From assembly GCA_035601235.1 (NCBI GenBank), contig DATNOR010000038.1, forward strand, positions 4,858-68,857: DNA of 64,000 nucleotides, read 5' to 3'. The notes under the pieces were generated by a model. It searched no databases. It saw nothing but the letters and a program-made list of their open reading frames with translations, and was not told the DNA's origin. A program made the position numbers and the translations under genes. Every line of letters starts with the position of its first letter. Position 1 is the first letter of the stretch. The stretch is from Gemmatimonadales bacterium (GTDB taxonomy: Bacteria; Gemmatimonadota; Gemmatimonadetes; Gemmatimonadales; GWC2-71-9). Below, piece by piece: positions 45,201 through 64,000 of the stretch.

Positions 45201-45450
45201 CCAGCGGCTGCGCAAGGAGGCGGGCTACGAGTACACGACCCGCATCGAGCTGAGCGTGGCCGGCGCGGCCGATATCGTGGCGGCCGTGTCGGCGTTTCAG
45301 AACTTCGTCGAGGGCGAGACGCTGGCCCGCAAGCTGGTGCTCGGCAGCGTGCTCGACGAGGCGGACGTGACGCGAGAATTGGACATCGAGGCGCGCCGGG
45401 TGACGATTGCGCTCCGGCGCCATGACGGACGAAAGGGCGGTACGCGATAA
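42292..45450 (+). CDS. ileS: Isoleucine--tRNA ligase (type 2-like)
   Basis: Start ATG 42292 (TGATG junction) within ORF 41809..45450. [17 protein letters not shown] (HIGH), KMSKSRGN (KMSKS), and the CP1 editing domain. Confidence 0.97.
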
Positions 45451-46371: not shown

Positions 46372-47384
46372 TGGCCGCCGTCACGTTCTGCGTCGTCGTT
46401 CCCGAGACCGAGCGTCTCGACCGCTTCCTCGCCGATCAGCTTGCGCTGTCTCGTACCGCCGCCGCCCGCCTCATCGCCGACAAGCACGTCACCCGCGACG
46501 GGCGACCCCTGCGTGCCGCCGCGCAACTCGAGCGCGGGGCCGTGGTGACGGTCGAGCTCCCGCCCGACGAGCCGGCCCCACCCAGCTATGCGCCCGCCCA
46601 TCGCGATCTCACGTTTGCCTACGAAGACGAGCACCTCGCGGTGCTCGACAAGCCCGCCGGCCTGGTCGTCCATCCCGGCCCCGGTCACTGGGACGACACG
46701 CTCGTCAACGTGCTGGTGGGACGGGGCACCGCCTTGGCGCAGGGGGCCACCGAGGGGCGGCCGGGCATTGTGCACCGGCTCGACCGCGATACGTCGGGAC
46801 TGCTCCTGGTCGCCAAGACCGACCAGGCGCACCGCCGGCTCACGCGCATGATCGAGCGGCGGGAGGTGCGGCGCGTGTACGCCGCGCTCGCCTGGGGGCA
46901 CTTCGCGAACAGCCCGGTGGACTTCGAGGCGCCGATCACGCGTCACCCCAAGGATCGCAAGCGCATGACGGTGCTGGCGGGCGGGCGCCACGCGGTCACG
47001 CATGCGCGTGTCATCGCCCGCTTCGCCCACGCCGACCTGGTGCGCGTGGAGCTGGGCACCGGGCGCACGCATCAGATCCGCGTGCACTTGGCGCACGTGG
47101 GGCACCCGGTCGTGGGCGACCGCGAGTACGCGTTCGGCGGCAGCCGCCGGGTCACGGCGGCGGCGCGTCCGGCGGCCGAGCGTCTGGAGGCGCTCGCGCC
47201 GCGTCAGCTGTTGCACGCGGCGGTGCTCGCGCTGGTCCATCCGGTGACCGGCGCGCGGCTGGTGGTGCGCTCCGAATGGCCGCGCGACCTCGTGCCGGCG
47301 CTCGCCGAAGCGGCCGCCGATGCGACTTTGCTTGCTCAACGCAACCCCTTGCAGTATCTTGGCTTCTTCGCTTCGGATGAGTGA
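46371..47384 (+). CDS. rluD: RluA-family 23S rRNA pseudouridine synthase (RluD-like)
   Basis: Start ATG 46371 (TGATG junction). S4 domain (RLDRFLADQL), catalytic HRLDRDTSGLLLVAKT, and GRTHQIRVHL. Confidence 0.9.
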   Translation: MAAVTFCVVVPETERLDRFLADQLALSRTAAARLIADKHVTRDGRPLRAAAQLERGAVVTVELPPDEPAPPSYAPAHRDLTFAYEDEHLAVLDKPAGLVVHPGPGHWDDTLVNVLVGRGTALAQGATEGRPGIVHRLDRDTSGLLLVAKTDQAHRRLTRMIERREVRRVYAALAWGHFANSPVDFEAPITRHPKDRKRMTVLAGGRHAVTHARVIARFAHADLVRVELGTGRTHQIRVHLAHVGHPVVGDREYAFGGSRRVTAAARPAAERLEALAPRQLLHAAVLALVHPVTGARLVVRSEWPRDLVPALAEAAADATLLAQRNPLQYLGFFASDE

Positions 47385-47826
47385 CGCCGGAGTCGTCCGA
47401 CTGCTGCTGTTTCGGGTAGGCGCCCTCGTCTGTGCGGCCGAGGCGGAGCGGGTGCGTGAGATCCTGCCCCGGCTCGTGCCCACGCGGATTCCCGGGGCGC
47501 CGCCCGTGGTGGCGGGCCTGGTCAACGTGCGGGGGACGCTGGTCACGGTCGTCGAGGGATGGCGGGCGCTGCGCCAGCCCGAGCCGCCCGACGATGCAGG
47601 TTCCGGGACCACGGTGGTGCTCGAGGTGGGCCGCGGCAACAAGGTCCTCGGCTTCACGGTGGACGAGGTGGTGGACCTCCTCTCCGTGGCTGGGGAGGCG
47701 CTGGAACGCCGGCAGGCGCTGCCCGGCATCGATCCGATCCTGGTGCGGGCCGTCGGACGTCGCGCCGGTCAACTCTTCGTGGTCCTCGATACCGACGCGC
47801 TGCTCACCCCCATTCTGTCTTCCTAG
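47377..47826 (+). CDS. cheW: Chemotaxis coupling protein CheW
   Basis: Start chosen at ATG 47377, an 8-nt overlap with rluD. LLLFRVGALVCAAEAERVREIL...VAGLVNVRGTLVTVVE...VLGFTVDEVVDLL is a typical CheW fold pattern. Confidence 0.85.
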   Translation: MSDAGVVRLLLFRVGALVCAAEAERVREILPRLVPTRIPGAPPVVAGLVNVRGTLVTVVEGWRALRQPEPPDDAGSGTTVVLEVGRGNKVLGFTVDEVVDLLSVAGEALERRQALPGIDPILVRAVGRRAGQLFVVLDTDALLTPILSS

Positions 47827-47835
47827 GGAGGATGT

Positions 47836-48198
47836 GTGAGTCACACTGTCCTCGTCTGCGACGACGCCATCTTCATGCGGACGATGATCTCGGACATCCT
47901 GGCCCAGGCGGGATTCGAGATCGTGGGAGAAGCGGAGACGGGGTCCCAGGCGGTCGAGAAATACCGCCAGCTCAAGCCCGATCTCGTCACCATGGACATC
48001 GTGATGCCGGACATGGGCGGCATCGATGCGGTGCGCGAGATCGTCAAGCAGGATCCCGACGCCAAGATCCTCATGTGCAGCGCGATGGGCCAGCAGGCGC
48101 TCGTGGTCGAGGCGATTCAGGCGGGGGCGAAGGATTTCGTGGTGAAGCCGTTCCAGCCGTCGCGCGTCCTCGAGGCCGTGCAGCGGGTCCTCGGCTGA
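47836..48198 (+). CDS. cheY: Chemotaxis response regulator CheY
   Basis: 120 aa. GTG start with GGGAGGA upstream. Receiver motifs VLVCDDAIFMR, LVTMDIVMPDMGG (phospho-Asp), MCSAMG and DFVVKPF. Confidence 0.93.
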   Translation: MSHTVLVCDDAIFMRTMISDILAQAGFEIVGEAETGSQAVEKYRQLKPDLVTMDIVMPDMGGIDAVREIVKQDPDAKILMCSAMGQQALVVEAIQAGAKDFVVKPFQPSRVLEAVQRVLG

Positions 48199-48202
48199 CT
48201 CC

Positions 48203-50101
48203 ATGGACCTGTCGCAGTACGCCGAGCTGTTCCTGGCCGAGAGCCGGGAGCACCTGAGCGCCTGCAACCAGCTGCTGCTCGATTGGGAGCGCACCCCCGC
48301 CAATCCCGCCCCCGTGGCCGGGCTGTTCCGCGCCGTACACACTGTGAAGGGCATGGCGGCGACCATGGGCTACGGCCGGGTCACCGATATCGCCCACCGC
48401 ACCGAGAACCTGCTCGACCTGCTGCGCCGCGGCTCGCGCCCCGCGACCGACGAGCTGCTGCAGCTCTTGTTCCGGGCGCGCGACGCGCTCGAGCACGCCG
48501 TCGAGCTGTCGGTGGTGGGACGGGAGGACGAGCTCGATGTGGCGGAGGTCGTGGCCGATCTCGAGAGCGCGGCCGCGCTGCTCGCAGGACCCGAGCGACC
48601 AGCGCCGGCGCCGGCCGCGGCGGTCGAGCCGCCGGCGGCGCCGGGGGGGGGCCGGCTGGTGCAGGTGACGCTGCGCGCCGAGGCGCAGCTCAAGGGCGGG
48701 CGCGCGCTGCTCGCCCTCAAGCGGGCCCAGGCGCTCGGGGCCGTCCAGGGGGTGACGCCGCCCCAGGCGGCGTTCGAGTCCGACGACTTCGACGGCGGCT
48801 TCAGCTTCCGGCTCGACTCGTCCGCCGCCGCGGCGGAGATCGAGCGGGCGGTCCGTGGGGCGGGGGACGTGGAGCACGTGTCCGTCGGAGGGGGGGGCGA
48901 AGAGCGCCGTGCCGCGGCCCCGCGGGGAGCGGGGGCGGCGGCCGCTGCGGAGGCGACTCCCGAGAAGAGCCGTCACATCCGCGTGGACCTGCGGCGCCTC
49001 GACGAGCTGATGGACCTGATCGGCGAGCTGGTGACGGTGCGCGGCCGCTTGAACGAGTTGGCGGCGGCGCGGCGTGATCCCGCCGTCGACGATGTGGCGA
49101 TCCAGATCTCACGCCTCTCGGCGGACCTGCAGGCCGGGATCATCCAGGCGCGCATGACGCCGGTGTGGCAGGTGTTCGACCGCTTCCCGCGCCTGGTGCG
49201 CGATCTGGCGCGCGAGCTGGACAAACAGGTGGCGTTCCGCGTGGAAGGCAAGGAGATCGAGCTCGATCGGGCGATCCTCGACGAGCTGGGCGACCCGTTG
49301 CTGCACCTGCTCCGCAACGCGGTGGACCACGGCATCGAGACCCCCGCCGAGCGGCGCCGCCGCGGCAAGCCGCCCGAGGGCGAGATCGTGCTGGCGGCGG
49401 TGCGGGAGCGGGCCAGCGTGGCGATCAGCGTGAGCGATGATGGCCGTGGCATCGACCGCGCCCGGATCCTGGAACGGGCCCGACGCGAGGGACTGGTGGA
49501 TGCCCACGCGGAGGCGCTGTCGGACGATCAGCTGCTGCGGGTGCTGGCGCGTCCCGGGTTCTCGACCGCGGAGGCCGTGACCAGCGTGTCGGGGCGGGGT
49601 GTGGGGATCGACGTGGCTGTGACGCGCATCCGCGCGCTGGGCGGCTCGATTGACATACGTACAGAGGCGGGCAAAGGGACGAGCTTCGTGCTGCGGCTGC
49701 CGGTGACGCTGGCGATCGTCCGGGCCCTGATCGCGGGGGTCGGCCGGGAGCGCTACGCCCTGCCGCTCACCTACGTGGCGGAGACGGTCGAATTCGGCGT
49801 GCAGCCGACCACCATCGTCGAAGGGCGCGAGGCGATCGTGCTGCGCAACCGTGTGGTGCCGCTGGTGCACCTGCGGCGGATGCTGGGCGTCAGCGGGGAC
49901 GCCCCGGCGCGCTGCCCCATCATCGTGCTCGAGATGGGGGAGCGCACGAGCGGCATCGTCGTGGATGGGATGCTCGGCCAGCAGGAGATCGTGGTGAAGG
50001 GCTTCGACCCGCCGCAGGGGACGCTCCCGGTATTCAGCGGAGCGACCATCATGGGCGACGGGAACCCGGCGTTGATTCTCGACGCCGGTGGGCTCGTCTA
50101 G
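48203..50101 (+). CDS. cheA: Chemotaxis histidine kinase CheA
   Basis: 632 aa. Hpt box FRAVHTVKGMAATMGY, dimerisation region IRVDLRRLDELMDLIGELV, HATPase N/G boxes (LLHLLRNAVDHGIE, DDGRGID, GRGVGIDV, GKGTSF), and a C-terminal CheW-like P5 domain. Confidence 0.95.
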   Translation: MDLSQYAELFLAESREHLSACNQLLLDWERTPANPAPVAGLFRAVHTVKGMAATMGYGRVTDIAHRTENLLDLLRRGSRPATDELLQLLFRARDALEHAVELSVVGREDELDVAEVVADLESAAALLAGPERPAPAPAAAVEPPAAPGGGRLVQVTLRAEAQLKGGRALLALKRAQALGAVQGVTPPQAAFESDDFDGGFSFRLDSSAAAAEIERAVRGAGDVEHVSVGGGGEERRAAAPRGAGAAAAAEATPEKSRHIRVDLRRLDELMDLIGELVTVRGRLNELAAARRDPAVDDVAIQISRLSADLQAGIIQARMTPVWQVFDRFPRLVRDLARELDKQVAFRVEGKEIELDRAILDELGDPLLHLLRNAVDHGIETPAERRRRGKPPEGEIVLAAVRERASVAISVSDDGRGIDRARILERARREGLVDAHAEALSDDQLLRVLARPGFSTAEAVTSVSGRGVGIDVAVTRIRALGGSIDIRTEAGKGTSFVLRLPVTLAIVRALIAGVGRERYALPLTYVAETVEFGVQPTTIVEGREAIVLRNRVVPLVHLRRMLGVSGDAPARCPIIVLEMGERTSGIVVDGMLGQQEIVVKGFDPPQGTLPVFSGATIMGDGNPALILDAGGLV

Positions 50102-50122
50102 GCCCACGCGAGGGGAGGCGGC

Positions 50123-50740
50123 ATGGAGGACGTGCGGGATCTGAAGGCGCTACAGATCGACGCCCTGCGGGAGGTGGCCAACATCGGAGCGGGGCACGCC
50201 GCCACGGCGTTATCCCAGCTCACGAACCGCCGCATCATGATCAGCGTGCCGCAGATCAACATCGCGCGGCTGGAGGAGGTGCCCGACCTGCTGGGCCACC
50301 CCCAGGACGTGGTCGCCGCCGTGCTCATGCACATGCTGGGGGACCTGACCGGGCGGACGCTGCTCCTGTTCCCCGAGTCGGTGGGGCGGCGGCTGTGCGA
50401 CATGCTGCTGCGCCGTCCGCTCGGCACGACGGTGGCGTTCGACGCGTTGGAGCAGTCGTGCCTCAAGGAGGCTGGCAACATTCTCTCGGGCGCCTACATG
50501 AACGCCCTGTCGGACTTCATGGGCATGTTGCTGCTGCCTTCGGTGCCGAGCCTCGTAGTGGACCTGTCGGCCGCGGTCCTGACCACCACCTACCTCAACT
50601 TCGGACACGAGCGCGACTTCGTGTTCTGCGTCGAGACGGAATTCGCGATTGATTCGCCCGAGGGGCTGCGGGGCCACTTCCTGCTGCTTCCCGATCTGGC
50701 GTCGCTCAAGGCCATTTTTGACGCCATCCGCCTGAGCTGA
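50123..50740 (+). CDS. cheC: CheY-P phosphatase CheC (CheC/CheX/FliY family)
   Basis: 205 aa. Duplicated signature: DALREVANIGAGHAATALSQL and SCLKEAGNILSGAYMNALSDF. Confidence 0.85.
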   Translation: MEDVRDLKALQIDALREVANIGAGHAATALSQLTNRRIMISVPQINIARLEEVPDLLGHPQDVVAAVLMHMLGDLTGRTLLLFPESVGRRLCDMLLRRPLGTTVAFDALEQSCLKEAGNILSGAYMNALSDFMGMLLLPSVPSLVVDLSAAVLTTTYLNFGHERDFVFCVETEFAIDSPEGLRGHFLLLPDLASLKAIFDAIRLS

Positions 50741-50743
50741 CCC

Positions 50744-53443
50744 GTGACGGCGCCGGCGCTCTCGGAACGCGACCTCGCCGTCCTCCGATCCTTCGCCCGC
50801 CGGATCGACCCTTCGGACGCGGGCGCGCACAACAACCTCGGCGTCCTGTATTACCAGAAGGGCCTGGTCGAGGACGCGATCGCCGAGTTCACCCGCGCGC
50901 TCGAGCTCGACCCGAAGATGCAGGTCGCGCAGCGCAACCTCGAGATCGCCTATCACGACACGGGCTACTACGACCAGCGCGTGGCCCAGCTGCGGGAGCG
51001 GCTGCGCAGCGCCCCCGACGACCGCGACGCGCGCTGGGAGCTGGGGCGCGCCTACGCGATCCTCGGCGCCCAGGAGGACGCCGTCGGGGAGTTCGAGCAG
51101 CTGCTGGCGCATCGCCCCGACGACGTGGCCGCCATCATCCAGCTCGGGCTCGCGGAAAAGAACCGGGGGCGGCCCGAAGCGGCGACGGAGTGGTTTCTGC
51201 GCGCCGTGGAGCTCGAGCCCGACTCGAGCGTCGTGCACTTCTATCTGGGGGAGATCTACTACAACCGGGGCTTGAACGCCGAGGCGCTCGGGGCGCTCGA
51301 GCGGGCGGTGGCCCTGAACCCCGACAACGCCAACGCCCACTACCTGATGGCCTTCGTCTTGGGCGACCTGGGTCGCCACCAGGACGCCCGGGCCGCCTCG
51401 AAGCGCGCGATCCAGCTCAACCCGCCGCTGGCCCGCGCCCAGACCAACCTCTCGCTCGAGCGCTACAACGCGGAGCGCAAGAGCCAGGAACGGCGCCAGC
51501 GGCTCGTACCCGAGCCGCAGGTGGTGGAAGGGAACGAGCTGGCGCACTACAACCTCGGGCTCGCCTTCCGGCAGAAGGGCTACTACAACGAGGCGCTGCG
51601 GGAGTATCGCCTGGCGCTGGAGCGGGGCGAGGACCGGCGGCTGACGCTGCAGGCGATGGCGGAGGTGCACCTGCTGAAGCACGACTTCGCCACGGCGCTC
51701 GAGCTGTACGACACGCTGCTGCGCGAGGTGCCCGACTCGCCCAAGCTGTGGAACGAGCGCGGAGTCGTGCTGCACCAGGCGGGCCGCACCGACGAAGCGC
51801 TGGCCTCCTACCGACAGGCGGTGGAGGTGGATGCCAAGTACGCGCTCGCCTGGAACAACCTCGGCGTGGTGCAGGCGCACAAGACCGCGGCCGACGCTGC
51901 GATCGAGTCGTTTCGCACGGCGCTGCGGTTGCAGGGGGCGTTCAGTGCCGCACGCTTGAACCTCGCCCTGCTGCTCTACCAGCTGCGCCGCTTCCAGCTG
52001 GCACTCGAGGCGTACCGCCAGGTGCTGTCGGGCGAGCCCGCCTCCGCCCCGGCCTGGAACGGCGTCGGGCTGGTGCTGGTGGAGCTGAAACGCTTTCCCG
52101 ACGCGCGCAACGCGTTCGTGCGCGCGGTGGAAGCGGACCCATCGCACGCGGGCGCGCATTACAACCTGAGCTTCACCCTGTCGAACCTCGGGGACTTCGA
52201 TGGCGCGCTCCGCGCCACCAAGCGCGCCCTGGAACTCGATCCCTACTACGTATCGCAGAAGTTCGCGCTCACGATCGACCTGCAGTACGAGAAGACCACG
52301 ATCGGGATCGCCCCGGAGATTTCGGCCGACGTGACCACCGAGACGATCGGCGAGGACTTCAGTTTCGACCAGCGGCTGCTGGACAACATCTTCCAGGAGC
52401 TCGAGCCCCCTGCCGCGCCGGAGCCGCCGGCCGGGAAGGCGGCCGACGACCCGCTGGCGCTGGCCCGCGACTACGTGAGCAAAGGGTTGATGGACGTCGC
52501 GGCGGCGGAGGCGGTGCGCGCCGTGCAGCGCGGCGCCAGCCGCGCCGACGCGGCCGTCCTGCTCGGCGACATCTTTGCGAAGCGGGGCCTGCACGGCGAG
52601 GCGCTGGAGCGCTACCGCGAGGCGCGCGCCCTCGAGGCCGAGCGCGTCGATGCGCGCCTGGGCGAGGTGAAGGCGTTGTTCGCGCTGGGCGGCCGCCGCG
52701 CCGAGGAGGCGCGCGCGCTGGCGGAGGAGCTGCTCGTGCTCGCCCCCGACCACGTGGACGCGCTCGTGGCGGCGGCGCGGGGACGCGCGGCGGCGGGCGA
52801 CGCGGCCGGGGCGCTCACGGCGCTGCAGCAGGCGCAAACGCGGGCGCCCGGGCGCGCCGACCTGCACAAGCTCCAAGGCGACGTGGCCATGAAGGTCGGC
52901 GACAAGCAGGGCGCGCTCGCCGCGTACCGCGCGGCGCTCGAGCTCGACCCGGGCTACGTGCAGGTGTGCGTCGACCTCGGCCGGCTACACGAAGAGAAAG
53001 AGGAGTGGAGCGCCGCCCAACAGGCGTACGAGCGGGCGCTCGACGCGCTGCCCACCTTCCACGAGGCGGCGCTCGCGCTGGCGGACCTGCTGCGCCGCTC
53101 CGGGCGCGCGCGCCAGGCGGTGGTGCGGCTCGCGGAAATGCTCGAGCAGGACCCCTACGACCTCCCGGCACTGTTGCTCCTGGGACGGGCGTTGCTCGAT
53201 GACAAGCGCGACCCCCAGGCCCTCGAAGCCTTCCGGCGGGCCCTCAAGTTCGACCCCGACCAAATGGAGGCGCTGTTCCAGCTGGGCGTCGTGCTCGCGC
53301 GGCTGCATCGCTACGCCGAGGCGGTGGAAGCGTGGGAGAAAGTGACACGCGTGGATCCCGGCGGTCCGTTCGCGCAGCGGGCGCGCGTGCACGCCCGCAC
53401 CGCGCTCGATCTGCAGCACATCTTCGACTCGGACGCCGCCTGA
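50744..53443 (+). CDS. 899-aa tetratricopeptide-repeat protein
   Basis: GTG start 3 nt after the cheC stop. More than 15 recognisable TPR units (e.g. AHNNLGVLYYQKGLVEDAIAEFTRALELDP, AWNNLGVVQAHK...). No signal peptide or TM helix seen. Confidence 0.85.
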   Translation: MTAPALSERDLAVLRSFARRIDPSDAGAHNNLGVLYYQKGLVEDAIAEFTRALELDPKMQVAQRNLEIAYHDTGYYDQRVAQLRERLRSAPDDRDARWELGRAYAILGAQEDAVGEFEQLLAHRPDDVAAIIQLGLAEKNRGRPEAATEWFLRAVELEPDSSVVHFYLGEIYYNRGLNAEALGALERAVALNPDNANAHYLMAFVLGDLGRHQDARAASKRAIQLNPPLARAQTNLSLERYNAERKSQERRQRLVPEPQVVEGNELAHYNLGLAFRQKGYYNEALREYRLALERGEDRRLTLQAMAEVHLLKHDFATALELYDTLLREVPDSPKLWNERGVVLHQAGRTDEALASYRQAVEVDAKYALAWNNLGVVQAHKTAADAAIESFRTALRLQGAFSAARLNLALLLYQLRRFQLALEAYRQVLSGEPASAPAWNGVGLVLVELKRFPDARNAFVRAVEADPSHAGAHYNLSFTLSNLGDFDGALRATKRALELDPYYVSQKFALTIDLQYEKTTIGIAPEISADVTTETIGEDFSFDQRLLDNIFQELEPPAAPEPPAGKAADDPLALARDYVSKGLMDVAAAEAVRAVQRGASRADAAVLLGDIFAKRGLHGEALERYREARALEAERVDARLGEVKALFALGGRRAEEARALAEELLVLAPDHVDALVAAARGRAAAGDAAGALTALQQAQTRAPGRADLHKLQGDVAMKVGDKQGALAAYRAALELDPGYVQVCVDLGRLHEEKEEWSAAQQAYERALDALPTFHEAALALADLLRRSGRARQAVVRLAEMLEQDPYDLPALLLLGRALLDDKRDPQALEAFRRALKFDPDQMEALFQLGVVLARLHRYAEAVEAWEKVTRVDPGGPFAQRARVHARTALDLQHIFDSDAA

Positions 53444-56237: not shown

Positions 56238-56241
56238 CCTC

Positions 56242-56841
56242 GTGTCCCTGGTCAACTTCACGACGCGTGAGATCACCTGCAAGATCGTCTACTACGGGCC
56301 CGGCCGCTCGGGGAAGACGACCAACCTGCATTACATCTACGGCCGGGTGCCGGACTCGCGCCGCGGCCGCCTGGTGTCGCTCGCCACCCAGACCGACCGC
56401 ACCCTGTTCTTCGATTTCCTGCCGATCGACCTGGGGCAGATCTCCGGCTTTTCGACCCGGTTCCAGCTCTACACCGTGCCGGGCCAGGTGTACTACAACG
56501 CGACCCGCCGGCTCGTGCTCCAGGGCGCGGACGGCGTCGTGTTCGTGGGCGACAGCCAGGCGCGCCAGCTCGACGAGAACCTGGAAAGCCTGCAGAACCT
56601 GCAGAGCAACCTGCTCGAGCACGGCGTCGACATCCGCACGATCCCGCTGGTGCTGCAATACAACAAACAGGACTTGCCGCGCGAGCTGATCCTCTCGGCC
56701 GCCGACCTGGACGACGCCCTCAACTTCCGCGGCGTGCCGAGCTTCAGCGCGGACGCGCTGCACGGCAAGGGAGTATTCGAGACGCTCAAGGGCATTTCCG
56801 AGCTGGTGCTGAAAAAGCTCGCGGCGGGGACGGCGGCGTGA
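56242..56841 (+). CDS. mglA: Ras-like small GTPase MglA
   Basis: 199 aa, aligning along its full length by eye with Myxococcus MglA. KIVYYGPGRSGKTTNL (P-loop), TDRTLFFDFLP (intrinsic Arg), the MglA-specific TVPGQ in place of DxxGQ, and QYNKQD (NKxD). Confidence 0.92.
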   Translation: MSLVNFTTREITCKIVYYGPGRSGKTTNLHYIYGRVPDSRRGRLVSLATQTDRTLFFDFLPIDLGQISGFSTRFQLYTVPGQVYYNATRRLVLQGADGVVFVGDSQARQLDENLESLQNLQSNLLEHGVDIRTIPLVLQYNKQDLPRELILSAADLDDALNFRGVPSFSADALHGKGVFETLKGISELVLKKLAAGTAA

Positions 56842-58826
56842 CGAGCGCCCTCAATCCCAAGTACTCGTTCGACAGCTTCGTGGTGGGCGCCGCCAACCGG
56901 CTCGCCGTCACCGCGGGGCGGACGGTCGCGGAGAACCCGGGCGCGGCCTACAACCCGCTGTTCATCTACAGCGGATCGGGCCTGGGCAAGACCCACCTCC
57001 TGATGGCGGTGGGTCAGGCGGCGAAGAAAGCGGCCCCCGCGCTCAACATCGAGTACTTCACCCTGGACGAGTACGTCGAGGCGTTCCACGCCGCCATCGC
57101 CGCGGGGCAGGGCGACGCGTTCCGCCGCCGCTTTCAGAACGTGGACGTGCTGCTCGTGGACGACGTGCAGTTCCTCACGAACCGCAAGGAGATGCAGTCC
57201 GAGCTGTTGCGCCTGACGGAGGCGCTGCAGGTGGGGGGGCATCAGATCGTGCTCACGAGCGACCGTCCACCGCCCGAGATCGCCGACCTGGACGAGCGCC
57301 TGATCTCGCGGCTCTCGGGCGGGCTGGTGGTCGACATCGGGGCGCCGGATTACGAGACCCGGGTCGCCATCCTGCGCCGCAAGGCCGACGAGCGCGGGGC
57401 CAAGTTCGAGCCGGGCGTGCTCGAGACGGTCGCGGACGCGGAGTCCGGCAACGTGCGGGAGCTGATGGGGGCGCTCAACCGGCTGGTCGCGTTTCAAGCG
57501 GTGAACGACCGCTCCATCAACGCGGAGACGGCGAAACAGCTGCTCGGCATCGGAAGCGAGGGCGCGCCCAGCGATGGTGGCAAGGCCGCGGGGAGGGAAG
57601 GAGCGGCGCGCGAAAGCGCGGGGCCCGGGGCCCGGGGCCCGAGAGACGAGTTCGGCGACTTCCTGGCCGACGTGACGGTCACCGTGGGGAAGGCGGTCGA
57701 GGCGTGGCGCGCGCGGGTCGGGGAGGCGATGCTGCGCTGGGAGGGGGAAGGCTATCGCACGCGGCGGCTCGAGGCGCTACTCGAACGCGATACGCCCGCC
57801 GCCGTGGACCAGGTGATCGCGGCGTTCACGCAGGACGTGGAGCGCCTGAAGGAGCTCGAGGCTGAGGTCGCGGAGCTCGACCCCCAGGCCGCCGGGCAGA
57901 GTGTGTTTCGCGATCCGGAGCGGCTGGGCGAGGCGGAGGAGGTGGCGGCCAAGGTGCGCGATGGCGCCGCGCCGCCCCCGGGGCCGTCGGCCGCGTTTCC
58001 GCTCGCGGCCTACGCGGTGGGGCCGTCCAACGAAGTGGCGGTGGGCGCCGCGCGCGCGGTGCTGAAGCAGCCCGGCAAGAAGTACAATCCGCTCGTGCTG
58101 GTCGGCAAGAGCGGTCTCGGCAAGACGCATCTGCTCAACGCCATCGGCCTCGAGCTCGCCCGCGGCAAGCGGGCGGTGGTGGCGTGTCTCTCGACGCAGG
58201 CGTTCGTGGATGAGCTGATCGCGGCGATCGATGGCGACCGCGTCGACTGGTGGCGGGCGCGCTACCGCCGCGCGACCGCGCTGCTGCTCGACGACATCCA
58301 TCTCATTGCCGGCAAGGAGCGCACGCAGGAGGAGCTGTTCAACCTGTTCAACCTGCTGCAGGACAAGGAGCGCCAGCTCGTCTTCACCGCTCCGGCACAG
58401 CCGCATACGCTCCCCGGTCTGGAGGAGCGCATCGCGTCGCGCCTGGCCGGAGGCCTGGTCGCGGAGATCAAGGAGCCCGACCGCGAGGTGAAGCGGGCCG
58501 TGCTGGAGCGCCTGCTGGGCCAGCAGAACTCCAGCCCGGATCCGGCGCTCGTCGACTACCTCGCCGACCGTCCGGCGGAGTCGGTGCGCGGCCTGGTGGG
58601 CGAGCTGCAGCGGGTCGTGGGCGCGGCGGCCGCCCAGGATGGTCCGCTCACGGCGGGGCTCGCGCGCGAGGTGCTCGAGGGCCAGGCGCCGCGCGACAGC
58701 CGCCGCAGCGCCGGCTTCCGTACGTCGGGGATCGTGGTGTCGAGCCTGGGCGGCATCAAGAGCCGTGAGAAAATGGTGTGGGACTGGAGCGACGTCGCCG
58801 ACCGTGTAATCGAGGAGTTCCGCTGA
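56838..58826 (+). CDS. Tandem DnaA-type AAA+ ATPase protein lacking DnaA domains I and IV
   Basis: 662 aa from GTG 56838 (GTGA overlap with mglA). Module 1 (aa 7-236): NPKYSFDSFVVGAANRLA, AYNPLFIYSGSGLGKTHL, LLVDDVQF, IVLTSDRPP, ERLISRLSGGLVV and GNVRELMGALNRL. Module 2 (aa 386-615): AYAVGPSNEVA, KYNPLVLVGKSGLGKTHL, LLLDDIHL, LVFTAPAQP, ERIASRLAGGLVA and ESVRGLVGELQRV. No helix-turn-helix DnaA-box-binding domain is present. Confidence 0.85.
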   Translation: MTSALNPKYSFDSFVVGAANRLAVTAGRTVAENPGAAYNPLFIYSGSGLGKTHLLMAVGQAAKKAAPALNIEYFTLDEYVEAFHAAIAAGQGDAFRRRFQNVDVLLVDDVQFLTNRKEMQSELLRLTEALQVGGHQIVLTSDRPPPEIADLDERLISRLSGGLVVDIGAPDYETRVAILRRKADERGAKFEPGVLETVADAESGNVRELMGALNRLVAFQAVNDRSINAETAKQLLGIGSEGAPSDGGKAAGREGAARESAGPGARGPRDEFGDFLADVTVTVGKAVEAWRARVGEAMLRWEGEGYRTRRLEALLERDTPAAVDQVIAAFTQDVERLKELEAEVAELDPQAAGQSVFRDPERLGEAEEVAAKVRDGAAPPPGPSAAFPLAAYAVGPSNEVAVGAARAVLKQPGKKYNPLVLVGKSGLGKTHLLNAIGLELARGKRAVVACLSTQAFVDELIAAIDGDRVDWWRARYRRATALLLDDIHLIAGKERTQEELFNLFNLLQDKERQLVFTAPAQPHTLPGLEERIASRLAGGLVAEIKEPDREVKRAVLERLLGQQNSSPDPALVDYLADRPAESVRGLVGELQRVVGAAAAQDGPLTAGLAREVLEGQAPRDSRRSAGFRTSGIVVSSLGGIKSREKMVWDWSDVADRVIEEFR

Positions 58827-60442
58827 TGGCCATCAAGGGATCGCTGAAGGAAGCGTCGCTCCCCGACGTGCTCCAGCTGCTCGCGCTGGGGCAGAAGACG
58901 GGGTGTCTCTCCATCGCCGACCGCTCGAACTTCGGCTACATCTACTTCGACAAGGGTCGCATCTGCTACGCGTCGATCGTCAACCGGCGCGATCGCCTGG
59001 GCGACATCCTGGTCAAGCACTCCAAAATCACCCAGGCGCAGCTCGACGTCGCCGTGCACCGCCAGACCAGGGAGCACGGCAAGAAGCTCGGCGAGGTCCT
59101 GGTCGGCATGGGGGTCATCACCCAGGCCGATCTCGAGCGCTACATGCGGGTGCAGATCGAGGAATCGGTCTACTATCTGTTCACCTGGACGCAGGGGACG
59201 TTCAACTTCGAGTCCGACGTCCGCCCCGAGCGCCAGGACTTTCGGGTCTCGATCAACCCCGAGTCGTTGCTGCTCGAGGGCGCGCGTCGCGTGGACGAGT
59301 GGAGCCTGATCGAGAAGAAGATCCCCGGGTTCGATTTGATCTTCGTCGTGGACGGGGACCGGCTCGCCATCAGCGAGGCGAAGCTGACCGACACCCAGCA
59401 GCGCATCCTGCCGCTGCTCGACGGGTCGCGCGACGTGAACCACGTGATCGAAGACTCCGGGCTGGGAGAGTTCGAGATCGGCAAAGCGCTGTACGGGCTG
59501 ATCACCGCCGGGTTCGTGCACCGCGCCGGCCGCACGGCGTCGGCGGCCGACGCGCAGATCACCGATGCGCGCGTGGAAGAGCATCGCAATCTGGGGATCG
59601 CGTTCTACAAGACGGGCATGCTGGACGAGGCGACGCGTGAGTTCCGCCGCGTCGCCGAGCTGCGCTCAGGGGAAGCCAACGCCCACTTCTACATCGGCCT
59701 CGTCGCCCTGAAGCAGGCGCGCTGGCGCGAGGCGATGGAGGCGTTGCGCCTGGCGGCGGAGAAGGGCGGGAACCGTCCCGCGGTGTTCCACAACCTGGGC
59801 TTTGCCTACGAGCAGCTGGGCCGGCTCGACGACGCCGAGGCGGCCTACGGCGAGGCGGCCACGCGTGCCCGGACCGATGCGAAGGTGTACCTGGGCTGGG
59901 GGGTCGTGGCGCTGAAGCGGGGCGACTACGCCAGTGCCGCCGGCCGTCTGGATCGGGCGCGGGAGCTGTTCGGCAAGGTGCCGCCGCCGGCCTGGTTCTG
60001 GGCGCGCACGCTCAGCGCCGCGGGGGCGGGCGCATTCGAGCTCGCGCAGGAGCTGGCCGAGGAGGGGGCGGAGGCCTTCCCGTCGCACGCCGCGCTCCAG
60101 AACAACCTGGCGGTGCTCAAGGAGCTCGCGGGGGACCTCGCGGGGGCGGAGGACGTCGTGCGCGCGGCGCGCAAGAACGAGCCCTCGCTCCCCCAGCTGT
60201 CCAAGAACCTCGGCGACCTCACCTACCGCGCGTCGCGCTACGACGAGGCCTGGGAGGCGTACCGGCGCGCCGTGGAGCTGGCCCCCGACCTGGGCGACGA
60301 CGTGTACTTCAAGCTCGGCAACATCGCGTACAAGCGGAACGAGCGCGAGCTCGCGACGCAGCTGTGGCGCCAGGCGCTCGAGATCAACCCGAAGCACGAG
60401 CTCGTCAAGGCCAATCTGGACACGTTGAGCGCGTTGTCGTGA
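58826..60442 (+). CDS. PATAN (DUF4388) domain protein with C-terminal TPR region, second paralog
   Basis: Start ATG 58826 (TGATG junction). MAIKGSLKEASLPDVLQLLALGQKTGCLSI...FDKGRICYAS, helical insert LGEVLVGMGVITQADLE, EGARRVDEWSLIEKKIP (compare EGARRIDEWSRIEGRIP in the first paralog), then about 7 TPR units. Confidence 0.8.
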   Translation: MAIKGSLKEASLPDVLQLLALGQKTGCLSIADRSNFGYIYFDKGRICYASIVNRRDRLGDILVKHSKITQAQLDVAVHRQTREHGKKLGEVLVGMGVITQADLERYMRVQIEESVYYLFTWTQGTFNFESDVRPERQDFRVSINPESLLLEGARRVDEWSLIEKKIPGFDLIFVVDGDRLAISEAKLTDTQQRILPLLDGSRDVNHVIEDSGLGEFEIGKALYGLITAGFVHRAGRTASAADAQITDARVEEHRNLGIAFYKTGMLDEATREFRRVAELRSGEANAHFYIGLVALKQARWREAMEALRLAAEKGGNRPAVFHNLGFAYEQLGRLDDAEAAYGEAATRARTDAKVYLGWGVVALKRGDYASAAGRLDRARELFGKVPPPAWFWARTLSAAGAGAFELAQELAEEGAEAFPSHAALQNNLAVLKELAGDLAGAEDVVRAARKNEPSLPQLSKNLGDLTYRASRYDEAWEAYRRAVELAPDLGDDVYFKLGNIAYKRNERELATQLWRQALEINPKHELVKANLDTLSALS

Positions 60443-61260
60443 CGGCGGGGGGGGGGCCGGACGAGCGGGCGTTTCGAGCGCTCACCCAGAAGATCACGCG
60501 GGCGCGAGGCCTCGCGTGCGACAGCTACAAGGACCGCTGCCTGCGGCGCCGCATCGCGGTACGGATGCGGGCGCGCGGCGTCCACACGTTCGACGATTAC
60601 AGTCGCCTGCTCGATCAAGACCAGCGCGAGTACGACCTGCTGGTCGACGCCCTCACCATCAACGTCACCAAGTTCTTCCGCAACGTGGAAACGTGGCGCG
60701 CGCTTGCGCCGTGGCTCGACAAGCTCTGGATCGCGCGCCGGGGCGAGGTGCGGGTCTGGTCGGCCGGATGCGCGTCGGGAGAGGAGCCGTACACCGTAGC
60801 GGTGGCGCTGGCCGAGGCGGCGCGCCGCGCCGGCCAGGAGCAGCTGCTCGGCCGCGCGCGCGTGGATGCCACCGACATCGACCGCGCGAGCCTCGAGCGC
60901 ACGCGGGCGGCGCAGTACCCCGAGGCGGCGTTCAGCGAGACCCCGCCGGAGCTGGTGGCGCGCTATTTCACGGCGCCACCGCGGCAGCCGGCACCCGAGC
61001 TGCAGCGCATCGTGCATGTCGCCAAGCACGACCTTACGAGCCAGCCGCCGCCCGCGCCGCCCTACGATCTGGTCGTCTGCCGCAACGTGGTGATTTACTT
61101 CGACCGGGCCATGCAGGAGCAGCTGTTCACGCTGTTCGCCGACGCGCTCGCGCCGGGGGGCGTGCTGCTGCTTGGCAAGGTCGAGACCTTGTTCGGTGCG
61201 GCGCGCGAGCGCCTGGTGCTCGAAGAGCCCCGCGAGCGGATTTATCGGCTGGCCCCATGA
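60439..61260 (+). CDS. cheR: Chemotaxis protein methyltransferase CheR
   Basis: Start GTG 60439 (GTGA overlap). LTINVTKFFRN, SAGCASGEEPYTVA (SAM-binding) and VCRNVVIYFD. Confidence 0.9.
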   Translation: MTAGGGPDERAFRALTQKITRARGLACDSYKDRCLRRRIAVRMRARGVHTFDDYSRLLDQDQREYDLLVDALTINVTKFFRNVETWRALAPWLDKLWIARRGEVRVWSAGCASGEEPYTVAVALAEAARRAGQEQLLGRARVDATDIDRASLERTRAAQYPEAAFSETPPELVARYFTAPPRQPAPELQRIVHVAKHDLTSQPPPAPPYDLVVCRNVVIYFDRAMQEQLFTLFADALAPGGVLLLGKVETLFGAARERLVLEEPRERIYRLAP

Positions 61261-61757
61261 TGGGAGCCGCGGCGCCGCAGGAGACGATCGTGAAGGTGGC
61301 CGACTGGGCCGCCGGCCGGGCGGATGCGGTGCTCGTGACGCTGGGCCTCGGGTCGTGCGTCGCGATCATGCTGCACGATCCCCGCGCCTGCGCCGGCGCG
61401 ATGGCCCACATCCTGCTGCCTTCGAGGAGCCTCGCGCGCGACATCACGAATCTCGCCAAGTTTCCCGAGACTGCCGTGCCGCTGCTGGTGGAGCGTCTCG
61501 CGACGCTGGGGGCCGACCCCCGATACCTCGTCGCCAAGCTCGCGGGCGGCGCCAGCATGTTCGCGCAGCTCATGACGCCGGGTTCGGTGCAGATGGGGGA
61601 GCGCAACGTCGCGGCCGCCCGCGCCGTGCTGCGCCACGTGGGGATCCCCGTGGCGGCCGAAGCGGTGGGCGGGGACGCCGGCCGCTCGGTGCGGTTCTAC
61701 GTGGCAGATGGCCGGGTCGAGATCCGGTCGGTCGGCGTCGATGCCATCGTCATCTGA
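61257..61757 (+). CDS. cheD: Chemoreceptor glutamine deamidase CheD
   Basis: Start ATG 61257 (ATGA overlap). [14 protein letters not shown] (catalytic Cys), [18 protein letters not shown] and GERNV. Confidence 0.88.
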
Positions 61758-62856
61758 CGGCCGCCCCAGCGTCCTGGTCGTGGACGACAGCGCGCTGATG
61801 CGGCGCGTGTTGAGCGACGTGCTGGGCGCGGGCGACGGCATCGCGGGGGCGGGGGAGTTTCGGGTCGTGGGCACCGCGCGCGACGGCTTCGATGCGGTGC
61901 GCAAGGTGCATCAGTTCGACCCCGACGTCGTGACGATGGACCTCGAGATGCCGGAACTCGACGGGCTGGGCGCCATCGGCTACATCATGTCGGAGTCGCC
62001 CCGCCCGATCGTGGTGGTGAGCGCGCACGCGGGGCCCGGCACCGGCACGGCGATCCGCGCCCTGGAGCTCGGCGCCGTGGAGATCGTCGCCAAGCCGGAC
62101 GATGCGAACCGTGCCGCGCTCGAGCGCATGGCCCCCGAGCTGCGCGGCGCCGTGCGCCGGGCCCTCGCCGCCGACGTGTCGCACGTCTCGGTCCTGGCGC
62201 GGCCGCCCGCGCCGGTGCGGCGCGCGCCCGAGCAGGCGCTCCGGGCCCGGGCCCGCCTCGCGGTCGCGCTCGCGGCATCCACCGGCGGGCCGCGCGCCCT
62301 CGCGGAAGTGATCCCGCGCCTCCCCACCGGCCGGACGGCCGCGGTGCTGGTCGTGCAGCACATGCCGCCCCGGTTCACCCGCTCGCTCGCCGAGCGGCTC
62401 GACTCGTTGTCCGCACTGCGCGTGGTGGAGGCGGACGACGGGGCGCCCGTGGTCGCCGACACGGCGTACGTGGCCCCGGGCGATTATCATATGCGAGTGG
62501 TCGCCGCCGCCGCAGGGCCCGCCATCGCGCTCGACCAGGAGCCGCCCGTGTGGGGCGTGCGCCCGGCCGCCGACCCGCTGTTTCGCTCGGTGGCGCAGGT
62601 GTTCGGCGCGAGGAGCATCGGCGTGGTGCTCACGGGCATGGGCCGCGATGGCGCGGAGGGCGTGCGCGCGATCCGCGCCGCCGGGGGCGGAGGGATCGCC
62701 CAGGACCGCGACTCGGCCGTCATCGCCGGCATGCCCACCGCGGCGGTGCAGATCGGGGGCGTGGATGCGGTCTTCCCGCTGGGCGAGATCGCGGGGCGGA
62801 TCGACACGGAGCTGGTCACGAGGGGGGCCGGCATGCGGGACACGGGGCGCGTGTGA
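61741..62856 (+). CDS. cheB: Chemotaxis response regulator protein-glutamate methylesterase CheB
   Basis: Receiver domain ([25 protein letters not shown]) plus methylesterase domain ([26 protein letters not shown]). Start ATG 61741 is preferred; 61708 is possible. Confidence 0.92.
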
Positions 62857-62860
62857 TGGC

Positions 62861-63325
62861 ATGCGTCAGGGTAGGGGCGCAGCATGCTGCGCCCCTCCAT
62901 CGACCGTGAGCCGCGGCTATCTGCTGGTGCGCGTGGACGGCCGGTCGTACGGCCTGCCCCTCGCCCGGGTGCTCGAGGTGGGCGACCTGGCGGAGGTGCT
63001 GGACGTGCCACGCGCCTTGCCGGCGATGCGTGGCCTCACCCCCCTGCGGGGACGCCTGGTGCCGGTGGTGCATCTGGGCGCGTTGATGCGCGACGGGACA
63101 CCGCCCGCCGAGCGGGGGCGCACGGCGGTGCTGGTGGAGATCGGGGCGGGCGAGGGCGCGCGCCGGGTGGCCTTCGAGGTGGAGGACGCCGACGACGTGG
63201 TGCGCGAAGCCGCGCTGCCGGTGCCGCGCGGCGAATCGCTGCCGTGGGCCTCGGGAGTGGCGCGCCGCCGCGGCGCGCTGGTCCCGATCCTCGATCTGGA
63301 CGCGCTGGGAGACCGCATCGGATGA
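62861..63325 (+). CDS. CheW-like domain protein (divergent)
   Basis: YLLVRVDGRSYGLPLARVLEV...MRGLTPLRGRLVPVVHLGAL...VAFEVEDADDVV...ALVPILDLDAL follows the CheW pattern. Start uncertain: ATG 62861 or GTG 62906. Confidence 0.75.
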   Translation: MRQGRGAACCAPPSTVSRGYLLVRVDGRSYGLPLARVLEVGDLAEVLDVPRALPAMRGLTPLRGRLVPVVHLGALMRDGTPPAERGRTAVLVEIGAGEGARRVAFEVEDADDVVREAALPVPRGESLPWASGVARRRGALVPILDLDALGDRIG

Positions 63326-63798
63326 CGGCAGGCGACGACGTACAGCTCGTGACGTTCAAGGTGGCCGGCTACGACTTCGCCTTCAACATCTTCCAGGTGG
63401 AGCGCATCCTCCGCTACGAGGCGCCGGCGCCGTTGCCCAAGGCCCCCGACTTTCTCGAAGGCGTGCTCCAGTACCAGGGAGCCGCCATCCCCCTGGTGGA
63501 CCTGCGGAAGCGGCTCGGCGTTCCGGCGCCGCACCGCGAGGAGACCCGCAGCGTGATTCTCGAGTGGGAGGGCGGCAAACTCGGCGTCGTGGTTGACGCC
63601 GTGACCGAAGTGCGGCAGGTCGCGGCCGAGCGGATCACGGCTCCGCCCGGGATCGTGAAGGGGTTGGCGGCGGAGTACATCACCGGTCTCGTGGTGACCG
63701 ACGGCCGCACGATCATCGTGCTCAATACGGCCCGGCTGCTGTCGTCGCAGGAGAAGGTCGCCCTGGACACGGCGGTGCAGCAGCAGGTGAAGGTCTGA
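63322..63798 (+). CDS. cheW: Chemotaxis coupling protein CheW
   Basis: Start ATG 63322 (ATGA overlap). LVTFKVAGYDFAFNIFQVERIL...FLEGVLQYQGAAIPLVDLRKRLG...LGVVVDAVTEV...IIVLNTARLL. Confidence 0.85.
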   Translation: MTAGDDVQLVTFKVAGYDFAFNIFQVERILRYEAPAPLPKAPDFLEGVLQYQGAAIPLVDLRKRLGVPAPHREETRSVILEWEGGKLGVVVDAVTEVRQVAAERITAPPGIVKGLAAEYITGLVVTDGRTIIVLNTARLLSSQEKVALDTAVQQQVKV

Positions 63799-64000
63799 TG
63801 GCCGATTCCCCGCTTCCCGCGCTCCGCGCCGAGTACGAGCAGATCGCGCGCCGCCTCGACGGGGTGACGCACGCGTCCGAGCGCGAGGTCGTGAAGCGCG
63901 AAATCATCGCCTACTTCAAGCGGGTCGATGCGTTCATCGGCGAGCTATCGGCGCTCAAGGAGGACATCCGCAAGCTGGTCGATCGGTTCAAGCAGGTCAC
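63798..64000 (+). CDS. Hypothetical protein, N-terminal fragment (runs off the right edge)
   Basis: My own translation from ATG 63798 (TGATG junction with cheW): MADSPLPALRAEYEQIARRLDGVTHASEREVVKREIIAYFKRVDAFIGELSALKEDIRKLVDRFKQV. Helical or coiled-coil character, G/C-rich third positions, and no stop up to the window end. Confidence 0.45.
   Translation, partial: MADSPLPALRAEYEQIARRLDGVTHASEREVVKREIIAYFKRVDAFIGELSALKEDIRKLVDRFKQV

Follow-up and report, generated by a model that had tools for sequence, protein, structure and literature searches.

The DNA analysed here, a 64-kb window of about 70% G+C from a metagenome-assembled genome (MAG) of Gemmatimonadales, contains a cluster of 18 tightly packed, co-directional genes. 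Two blocks of chemotaxis (che) genes enclose a core encoding the small Ras-like GTPase MglA, MglB, further roadblock and TPR proteins, two PATAN-TPR proteins and a tandem DnaA-like AAA+ protein, termed DnaA2x. The architecture is nested: it consists of an invariant DnaA2x/PATAN-TPR pair, a nine-gene core with MglA together with the TPR protein TPR287, and two facultative che blocks at fixed points. Our preferred reading is that a Che phosphorelay feeds an MglA/MglB polarity switch and its PATAN and TPR effectors, most likely for the control of type IV pili; we consider it about equally likely to be right or wrong. The conservation of the gene order, the natural variants of the locus and the properties of the individual proteins bear on this reading and are presented in that order.

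Gene organization of the cluster

Mechanical lists of open reading frames (ORFs) for the window are full of spurious frames. The G+C content at the third codon position showed that plus-strand genes follow one another without a break from about 41.7 kb up to the edge of the window (64 kb); starts were set at the junctions, and the products were scanned against Pfam and NCBIfam. The first-pass annotation had listed 18 co-directional genes of named families from cheW (position 47377) to the edge, and these were confirmed gene by gene (Table 1). The 5' che block has the order CheW1-CheY-CheA-CheC and the 3' block the order CheR-CheD-CheB-CheW2-CheW3; between them lie TPR899, PATAN1, TPR-Robl, Robl2, MglB, MglA, DnaA2x and PATAN2, and the cluster reaches one gene beyond the edge. 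The 17 junctions comprise 11 overlaps of 1–17 nt and 6 gaps of 3–21 nt, and a scan for promoters and terminators gave no signal above chance that divides the cluster. The same annotation had taken the cluster for one translationally coupled unit. The tight junctions were confirmed, but they do not delimit a unit: overlaps of 1, 17, 1 and 8 nt are found along ileS-dksA/traR-lspA-rluD-cheW1 (the 8 nt being those of rluD into cheW1), so that the coupling continues upstream into housekeeping genes and the tightness of the junctions alone does not define a functional unit. Several metagenomes and NCBI MAGs have contigs that carry exact copies of MglA and CheW3 in the same gene neighbourhood; one of these contigs is 99.8% identical to the window across the shared overlap.

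Conservation and natural variants

One genome per species (GTDB) was scanned with two narrow linker peptide patterns, yielding 247 genomes; the best 80 of these 247 were annotated with the window's own proteins. The gene order is the same, gene for gene, in most of them. The interleaved arrangement is therefore not peculiar to this assembly, and its conservation in dozens of species-level genomes indicates that it is more than chance. CheA-CheC, with or without CheY and CheW1, lies directly upstream of TPR899 in 41 of the 44 loci with enough upstream sequence (CheW1 in 24 of the 44, which have at least 2.6 kb upstream of TPR899). CheR-CheD-CheB follows PATAN2 directly in 37 of the 43 loci with enough downstream sequence. 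The order after PATAN2 is CheR-CheD-CheB-(CheW2)-CheW3-TPR287, followed by genes for a Peptidase_MA_2 protein, a 61-aa protein and a 596-aa TPR protein; CheW2 is missing from some orthologous loci. The median identities across the loci are among the highest for CheY (92%), MglA (85%) and TPR287 (74%), and among the lowest for DnaA2x (58%) and TPR-Robl (55%). The 80 loci are all labelled Gemmatimonadota save a 4-kb 'Solirubrobacterales' contig and 'Bacterium HR33', and among the named matches DnaA2x was seen in Gemmatimonadota only. Two contigs of 4070 bp (L078 and L080) have equal length, match coordinates and scores but are assigned to different MAGs (Solirubrobacterales and Gemmatimonadales); the actinobacterial one of these labels probably arose from wrong binning.

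The loci that deviate from the full arrangement are informative about its parts. In two of them (L047 and L051) rluD is followed by the core, TPR899 included, and by TPR287; che genes are absent, and there is no space for any. TPR287 directly follows PATAN2 in the che-less variants and is part of the core, not of the che block. CheY is the che component most often kept in reduced variants, alone in L083 and with CheC in L087, where DnaA2x is 35% identical and its slot is unchanged. L050 retains CheY-CheA-CheC and lacks the 3' che block, and L053 and L056 have the 5' che block plus CheD.

The smallest loci (L088, L089, L092 and, from a Longimicrobiales MAG, L094; L088 and L092 come from MAGs without an order-level label) have the order rluD-(roadblock)-DnaA2x-PATAN/TPR-Peptidase_MA_2, and neither MglA nor che genes were found in them. 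In the minimal-type loci, too, Peptidase_MA_2 is conserved as the gene downstream of PATAN-TPR. A roadblock gene lies directly upstream of DnaA2x, in a locus without MglA, in L092 (7564-8004) and L089 (596-1012); that of L092 encodes a protein with 38% identity to the MglB-like protein of the window. Peptidase_MA_2 is followed in L088, L092 and L094, three of the four minimal-type loci, by a gene for a sigma54-type response regulator (REC + Sigma54_activat), and in L094 (10001-15967) the successive genes for DnaA2x, PATAN-TPR, Peptidase_MA_2 and the response regulator overlap at their start and stop codons. The presence of this regulator in the row suggests that the ancestral DnaA2x/PATAN-TPR pair already had a phosphorelay partner.

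All tiers occupy one chromosomal slot, after folP-cdaA-yggS-(divIVA)-ileS-rluD and before the dcw cluster, and the ileS-lspA-rluD flank was found in every variant locus. PATAN2 follows DnaA2x in every locus, the minimal ones included. From the nesting of variants in one slot it follows that the invariant partners are DnaA2x and PATAN-TPR, not MglA. The first-pass annotation had described the chemotaxis and MglA machineries as interleaved in one operon. MglA is not the centre of the module: the DnaA2x/PATAN-TPR pair is the most persistent element and exists without MglA, and the che genes form two facultative flanking blocks.

Table 1. Genes of the cluster and of its upstream flank, with window coordinates and the basis of each assignment.
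Product	Position	Strand	Assignment and evidence
ileS	41809-45450	+	Pfam; upstream context, outside the module
dksA/traR zinc-finger gene	45450-45872	+	Pfam; upstream context, outside the module
lspA	45856-46371	+	Pfam; upstream context, outside the module
rluD-like gene	46371-47384	+	Pfam; upstream context, outside the module
CheW1	47377-47826	+	First gene of the 5' che block; Pfam CheW, E = 8e-23
CheY	47836-48198	+	Single-domain response regulator; Pfam Response_reg, E = 4e-31
CheA	48203-50101	+	Histidine kinase; Pfam Hpt, P2, dimerisation, HATPase and CheW-like domains
CheC	50123-50740	+	CheC-type CheY-P phosphatase; Pfam CheC, E = 2e-22, two stretches
TPR899	50744-53443	+	899-aa all-TPR protein, first core gene; Pfam TPR families
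PATAN1	53443-54594	+	PATAN (DUF4388) + TPR; Pfam DUF4388, E = 6e-32; NF053729, 44.5 bits
TPR-Robl	54587-55414	+	TPR (firm) + probable roadblock (weak) fusion
Robl2	55411-55770	+	Roadblock/LC7 protein, 119 aa; Pfam Robl_LC7, E = 5e-9
MglB	55767-56237	+	MglB ortholog, roadblock-fold candidate GTPase-activating protein; NCBIfam MglB model, E = 5e-8
MglA	56242-56841	+	Small Ras-like GTPase; phmmer against MglA structures
DnaA2x	56838-58826	+	662 aa, two Bac_DnaA AAA+ domains; Pfam Bac_DnaA, E = 2e-98; NCBIfam
PATAN2	58826-60442	+	PATAN (DUF4388) + TPR; Pfam DUF4388, E = 9e-40; NF053729, 54.9 bits
CheR	60439-61260	+	Methyltransferase, opens the 3' che block; Pfam CheR, E = 1e-43, and CheR_N
CheD	61257-61757	+	Deamidase; Pfam CheD, E = 2e-27; frame fixed by third-position G+C
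CheB	61741-62856	+	Methylesterase with receiver domain; Pfam CheB_methylest, E = 1e-62, and Response_reg
CheW2	62861-63325	+	Pfam CheW, E = 7e-18; public gene call begins at 62906
CheW3	63322-63798	+	Pfam CheW, E = 6e-34
TPR287	63798-64000	+	N-terminus; full 287-aa gene on the source contig

The tandem DnaA-like protein DnaA2x

The first half of DnaA2x matches DnaA domain III (phmmer against the PDB, E = 1e-59), with 45% identity to B. subtilis DnaA. The second half bears more resemblance to Hda. The structure was modelled with AlphaFold2 from 31 family members (mean pLDDT 86), and a Foldseek comparison gave for the first half a TM of 0.95 to 8bv3 (1.4 Å). The model shows a first AAA+ module (residues 1-240), a disordered stretch (240-271), an all-helical domain specific to the family (271-376), a second AAA+ module (about 390-615), a disordered tail (617-646) and a short C-terminal element. 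The structures retrieved by Foldseek were only DnaA, Hda and p97-type proteins (the latter with a double AAA+ layout and a poor root-mean-square deviation), and none was retrieved for the helical linker. Neither domain I nor the DNA-binding domain IV (Bac_DnaA_C) was matched in Pfam at E values up to 0.01, and the alignments to PDB entries end at the close of DnaA domain III. The lysine of Walker A and the aspartate of Walker B are each present in 31/31 family members in the first half and in 29/31 in the second; the sensor II arginine is present in 29/31 and 28/31, respectively, and the box VII arginine of the first half in 15/31 only. A C-terminal peptide, SREKxVWxWP...DR[LV]IE[ED]xR, is conserved in 75 loci. 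Direct reading of the N-terminal sequence revealed no clamp-binding motif of the Hda type (QL[SP]LPL-like).

Overall, both halves of DnaA2x are, like DnaA and Hda, AAA+ modules of the DnaA domain III type with Walker A, Walker B and sensor II residues. DnaA2x differs from DnaA and Hda in its tandem arrangement, the lack of domains I and IV, the helical linker, the C-terminal peptide and the fixed pairing of its gene with that of a PATAN-TPR protein. Assignment as the replication initiator DnaA was rejected on the grounds that the protein has AAA+ domain III twice and lacks domains I and IV. Assignment as Hda was rejected as well (a 662-aa tandem protein versus a single module of about 230 aa; Hda models score 182 against a cut-off of 195). 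An exhaustive search of representatives at 50% identity gave dozens of clusters of full-length DnaA2x proteins (about 640–670 aa), down to about 34% identity, and the family alignment contains linker and tail signatures lacking in DnaA. The members are named chromosomal replication initiator protein, DnaA/Hda family protein or hypothetical protein in the source databases. DnaA2x represents a large uncharacterised family of DnaA-derived double ATPases, and its context points away from replication. One candidate relative, P0193, was rejected, being an ordinary DnaA with domain IV.

DnaA-type AAA+ modules in other combinations were found outside this family. In P0234 and P0253 (L096, 24-3356), from unlabelled metagenome contigs, long TPR arrays are fused to a single C-terminal module of this type, and in P0202, P0204 and P0420 such modules are fused to MshEN domains. 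A Ca. Fermentibacteria MAG (L095, 2486-23973) and a related MAG (L097, 4919-15198) encode three to four MshEN-DnaA-type AAA+ proteins directly after pilD; in L095 these genes are followed by pilB, pilT, pilC and pilS, and the proteins reach 1990 aa. They share with DnaA2x the DnaA-type AAA+ module, combined in their case with MshEN and set in a pilus cluster; their architecture is different, and the loci have no MglA, PATAN or che genes. Specific kinship with DnaA2x was rejected, since in module-wise BLAST they were about 37% identical to DnaA2x and about 40% identical to DnaA proper; that DnaA2x ranks high beside these proteins is an effect of its two modules. The proteins of L095 and L097 look like an uncharacterised pilus-associated family of their own.

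PATAN-TPR proteins and cyclic di-GMP motifs

Both PATAN proteins score above the NF053729 cut-off of 38 bits. Pfam detected no C-terminal receiver domain in either, the C-terminus being occupied by TPR repeats. A helical insertion of the PATAN domain contains a tandem 24-residue motif of the MshEN type, RLGxx[LIV][LIV]xxG[LIV][LIV]xxxxLxxxLxxQ, with two copies in PATAN1 (residues 59-113, nt 53617-53781) and two in PATAN2 (residues 57-110, nt 58994-59155). The motifs, which had gone unmentioned in the first-pass annotation, are conserved in the orthologs, including the PATAN-TPR proteins of the minimal-type loci. Cyclic di-GMP (c-di-GMP) is accordingly a probable further input, with binding predicted at the PATAN insertions.

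MglA, roadblock and TPR proteins

MglA and MglB are genuine orthologs of the proteins known by these names. MglA aligned over its full length (residues 1-196) with the MglA structures of M. xanthus (phmmer, E = 1e-73) and T. thermophilus (E = 1e-68). Alignment with M. xanthus MglA identified the P-loop GPGRSGKT, TDRTLFFDF with the intrinsic Arg, and YTVPGQ; in the G3 motif T-x-x-G-Q (TVPGQ) Thr replaces the usual Asp. The eight best PDB matches of MglB are all MglB proteins (E = 5e-8), and its gene lies directly upstream of mglA, in the classical mglB-mglA order.

Robl2 and TPR-Robl are roadblock paralogs additional to MglB. The best PDB match of Robl2, which is similar in size to MglC, is the Robl_LC7 protein 7f8m (E = 1e-6). 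TPR-Robl had been described beforehand as a TPR-roadblock fusion. The TPR part is firm, and the roadblock part is indicated by three matches that share one register and are all weak, namely those to Pfam (E = 7e-4, below the gathering score), the NCBIfam MglB model (E = 1e-4) and hhalign against a profile of MglB orthologs (E = 0.011). TPR899 was considered as an ortholog of SgmX and rejected, the similarity being that of TPR repeats in general (41 bits against a cut-off of 1800). TPR287 has a non-TPR N-terminal region followed by TPR repeats.

Chemotaxis proteins

Of the Che pathway, the cluster encodes CheA, CheW and CheY and the adaptation enzymes CheR and CheB, together with CheD and CheC. 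CheY has the complete set of canonical residues (DD, the acceptor D in TMDIVMP, S, F and K). CheA has a single Hpt domain and no receiver domain in Pfam; among the NCBIfam models the archaeal type fits it best (452 bits; the E. coli-type model reaches 330 bits), and neither score attains its cut-off. The best NCBIfam match of CheD is the Thermotoga-type CheD model. For CheB a start at 61798 was rejected, as it truncates the receiver domain; the start at 61741 gives a full receiver.

Relation to known systems

The nearest parallel is the Frz-MglA/MglB/RomR system of Myxococcus xanthus, where a Che-type phosphorelay and genuine MglA and MglB likewise occur in one organism. The additional roadblock paralogs recall MglC, and the TPR proteins recall the MglA effector SgmX. 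In Myxococcus, however, the Frz and MglA/MglB systems are encoded at separate loci, and Frz has a CheA-receiver fusion (FrzE), a cytoplasmic MCP in the operon (FrzCD; MCP, methyl-accepting chemotaxis protein), the dual-REC protein FrzZ, and FrzX, which are not found here. The present cluster in turn includes CheC, CheD, a DnaA-derived ATPase and two PATAN-TPR proteins as integral members, and its CheA is without a receiver. No gene resembling romR or romX was found in the cluster.

The cyanobacterial Tax/Pix systems of the Tfp class are similar in that a chemosensory pathway is tied to PATAN proteins, with a stand-alone CheY-like regulator beside PATAN. They employ PATAN-REC (PatA-type) regulators, whereas the proteins described here are PATAN-TPR; CheA is different, and MglA/MglB and DnaA2x are without Tax counterpart. 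The features that define the Tfp class, i.e. a CheA that has additional Hpt domains and ends in a receiver, and PilG/PilH or PATAN-REC regulators, are absent here. In actinobacterial conservons (CvnA-D), too, a single operon encodes an MglA-family GTPase along with a histidine kinase and a roadblock protein. In their case the kinase is the membrane protein CvnA and not CheA, CvnC (DUF742) is present, MglA is of group 2, and che adaptation genes, PATAN and DnaA-like proteins are lacking; neither a CvnA-type membrane histidine kinase nor CvnC (DUF742) was detected in our cluster with Pfam. Overall, the cluster would function most like the Frz-MglA axis, with an output side like that of cyanobacterial Tax; it is a member of neither system, nor is it a conservon.

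Gene neighbourhoods combining MglA/MglB with PATAN genes have been reported (Makarova et al. 2006, cited in Wuichet and Sogaard-Andersen 2015). The neighbourhoods in these reports are occasional and variable, and neither enclosing che genes nor a DnaA-like ATPase is mentioned (the word 'DnaA' has 0 occurrences there). The first-pass annotation had regarded the companion families as unknown among MglA partners. This is borne out for the DnaA-like protein alone; PATAN (Makarova et al. 2006) and TPR proteins (SgmX) had been linked to MglA before. The same annotation knew of no description of the arrangement, and in the literature searched, which is incomplete, none was found of mglA embedded among che genes, of Gemmatimonadota carrying such a set of genes or of an MglA partner that resembles DnaA. 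The link between MglA/MglB and PATAN and the existence of a TPR effector of MglA are thus already known, and the embedding in che genes and DnaA2x are apparently undescribed.

Proposed function and alternative explanations

In the model that we propose, the cluster would have been built in layers, the oldest being the phylum-wide pair of DnaA2x and PATAN-TPR after rluD. In Gemmatimonadales this pair sits in the nine-gene core, where it is accompanied by a canonical mglB-mglA pair, two more roadblock proteins, another PATAN-TPR protein and large TPR proteins; in most species the two che blocks flank this core. Receptors encoded elsewhere would signal to CheA; CheY-P, reset by CheC, would act on the MglA/MglB switch or on its roadblock, TPR or PATAN partners. 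MglA-GTP, together with the TPR and PATAN-TPR proteins, would then decide which pole hosts an active surface machine; the most likely candidate is PilB/PilC, the extension motor of the type IV pilus. Further inputs would be c-di-GMP, through PATAN, and ATP, through DnaA2x. The latter would most likely bind to PATAN-TPR and act as a scaffold or switch whose oligomerisation depends on nucleotide; its conserved acidic C-terminal peptide may dock in the TPR domain of PATAN-TPR.

A functional link between the che blocks and the core is well supported, because the split-bracket order persists in dozens of species and because CheY, or CheY with CheC, stays beside the core once CheA is lost. From the gene linkage we infer that the signal flows from CheY to MglA. 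What is known of the families supports a role of the core as a polarity or motility switch; MglA/MglB has this polarity function in M. xanthus, and SgmX, the TPR effector of MglA there, co-occurs with PATAN and TPR proteins. There is moderate support for the type IV pilus as the machine under control. The PATAN domain serves in Synechocystis as the output domain, binding both the N-terminal domain of PilB1 and PilC. In a survey of >400 Gemmatimonadota MAGs, flagellar genes were present in one or two soil genomes only and pilus genes in all environments but marine. Few flagellar and many pilus genes also make plausible the non-flagellar output that had been proposed in the first-pass annotation, whose further step from CheY to MglA stands as a deduction from linkage.

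The role of DnaA2x as an ATP-dependent oligomerising scaffold or switch on PATAN-TPR is the weakest step. It is suggested by the invariant adjacency of the two genes, whose stop and start codons usually overlap, and by the conservation of the nucleotide-binding residues and of the acidic peptide that follows the disordered tail. By our own analogy, this peptide resembles those bound by TPR domains in Hsp70/Hsp90 co-chaperones. Analogical support comes from DnaA-type AAA+ modules that are elsewhere fused to TPR or, in pil clusters, to MshEN.

A bolder version of the model, which we put forward as tentative and on balance doubtful, holds that DnaA2x is no replication protein but a third nucleotide switch, driven by ATP, which forms with PATAN-TPR an ancient, phylum-wide module responsive to c-di-GMP. 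Onto this module Gemmatimonadales would have grafted MglA/MglB and a complete Che phosphorelay, giving one operon that integrates phosphorylation, GTP, ATP and c-di-GMP for the polarity of type IV pili or of another polar machine. If DnaA2x is such a switch, it would be the first AAA+ protein of the initiator clade exapted for motility or polarity signalling. If the link to pili holds, it would explain a complete chemotaxis set in soil Gemmatimonadota that are largely without flagellar genes. Chemosensory control of MglA has so far rested on one model, Myxococcus xanthus, where the systems are encoded apart and the link was found genetically; here the link is written into the gene order, in a different and poorly cultured phylum. 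The natural intermediates (pair; core; core with CheY; full cluster) show which parts go together and the probable order of their addition. The arrangement offers testable partners for MglA, CheY and the PATAN domains, with c-di-GMP flagged as a probable extra input.

A number of observations weigh against our preferred reading. No MCPsignal domain was found in the cluster, in about 40 other window products scanned or in the 10 kb downstream; a gene for one may lie in another part of the genome. That the core works without che genes is shown by the che-less variants, and the DnaA-like proteins of the pilus clusters are a case of parallel recruitment and not of orthology, so that they provide an analogy only. 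The che content (a stand-alone CheY, CheC, CheD, and a CheA with P2 and no receiver) resembles that of flagellar-type systems. This content, the archaeal and Thermotoga-type models that match CheA and CheD best in NCBIfam, and the gain or loss of the che blocks as units, independent of the core, would fit an ordinary flagellar chemotaxis operon enclosing a polarity module; the core would then be co-expressed for the placement or number of polar flagella, or for another motility task, and would receive no CheY signal. Cultured Gemmatimonas species with a polar flagellum, in which che genes are expressed together with fli genes, have indeed been published. We nevertheless regard such an operon as rather unlikely. 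Many cluster-bearing loci apparently come from soil and groundwater MAG sets, judged by names alone, and flagellar genes are confined to one or two soil MAGs in the survey cited above (a statistic that stems from a MAG set separate from the cluster-bearing genomes). No flagellar gene was found among the window products scanned or in the flanks examined, and CheY or CheY-CheC beside the core after the loss of CheA would be hard to explain if CheY served only a distant motor.

Also to be counted among the opposing observations are the first AAA+ half of DnaA2x, still 45% identical to domain III of B. subtilis DnaA (TM 0.95), and the dcw cluster directly downstream of the che/MglA cluster. With its first half being so DnaA-like, DnaA2x may still have a replication-related role. 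It could act on the real DnaA, for instance by co-oligomerising in the manner of Hda, and couple replication initiation, or the site of budding or division, to MglA, c-di-GMP and the phosphorelay. The Hda-like second half, the conserved nucleotide-binding residues and the fixed slot immediately upstream of rsmH-ftsL-ftsI-murE-murF agree with such a cell-cycle or division polarity device, as does the position of divIVA, which in L-numbered loci of the minimal type is found close to the slot in three cases out of four, two to three genes ahead of DnaA2x. Gemmatimonas aurantiaca is described as also dividing by budding. We consider the device unlikely, given that DnaA2x is without domain I and the DNA-binding domain IV, that no Hda-type clamp-binding motif is visible, that the box VII arginine of the first half is poorly conserved and that the invariant partner belongs to PATAN-TPR, a family tied to pili and motility. 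The adjacency to dcw is, moreover, one between separate transcription units (gaps of 125 and 257 nt).

It could finally be argued that no functional coupling exists and that unrelated operons have been compacted in a stable syntenic region of a gene-dense genome. The housekeeping genes ileS-lspA-rluD are joined to the cluster by junctions that are equally tight, which speaks against our preferred reading; overlaps of this kind are frequent elsewhere in the window, and the synteny of the flanking housekeeping genes is very stable. We judge this explanation very unlikely, as dozens of species have the two che blocks on either side of the core at the same two points of insertion, each core family has earlier links to MglA or motility signalling, and a purely accidental order would be expected to decay.

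Genomic surroundings

On the source contig (L091, 10477-20477) TPR287 is followed by genes for the Peptidase_MA_2 protein, which has an HExxH motif and a hydrophobic, transmembrane-like segment near its C-terminus, for a hydrophobic protein of 61 aa and for the 596-aa TPR protein, which has a signal-peptide-like N-terminus. The dcw cluster (rsmH, ftsL-like, ftsI, murE, murF) comes next. The remainder of the window consists of core housekeeping genes, i.e. those for ValRS, ThrRS, SHMT, Lon, enolase, TilS, FtsH, FolP, CdaA, YggS and IleS and one tRNA-Met; pilus genes, like flagellar genes, were not seen among the window products scanned. The tRNA-Met gene (CAT, 27308-27382) overlaps the mechanical start of the ORF at 27318-29327, which encodes an FG-GAP/ASPIC repeat protein, so that the true start of the latter must be further downstream than 27318. 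In three stretches of the window (7852-9981, 25680-27308 and 33897-35630) no ORF passed the codon-position G+C filter. The minus strand encodes at 22784-25680 a protein of 615 aa that has a partial match to protein kinases and, at its C-terminus, a PEGA domain; next to it lies a 371-aa product without a Pfam match.

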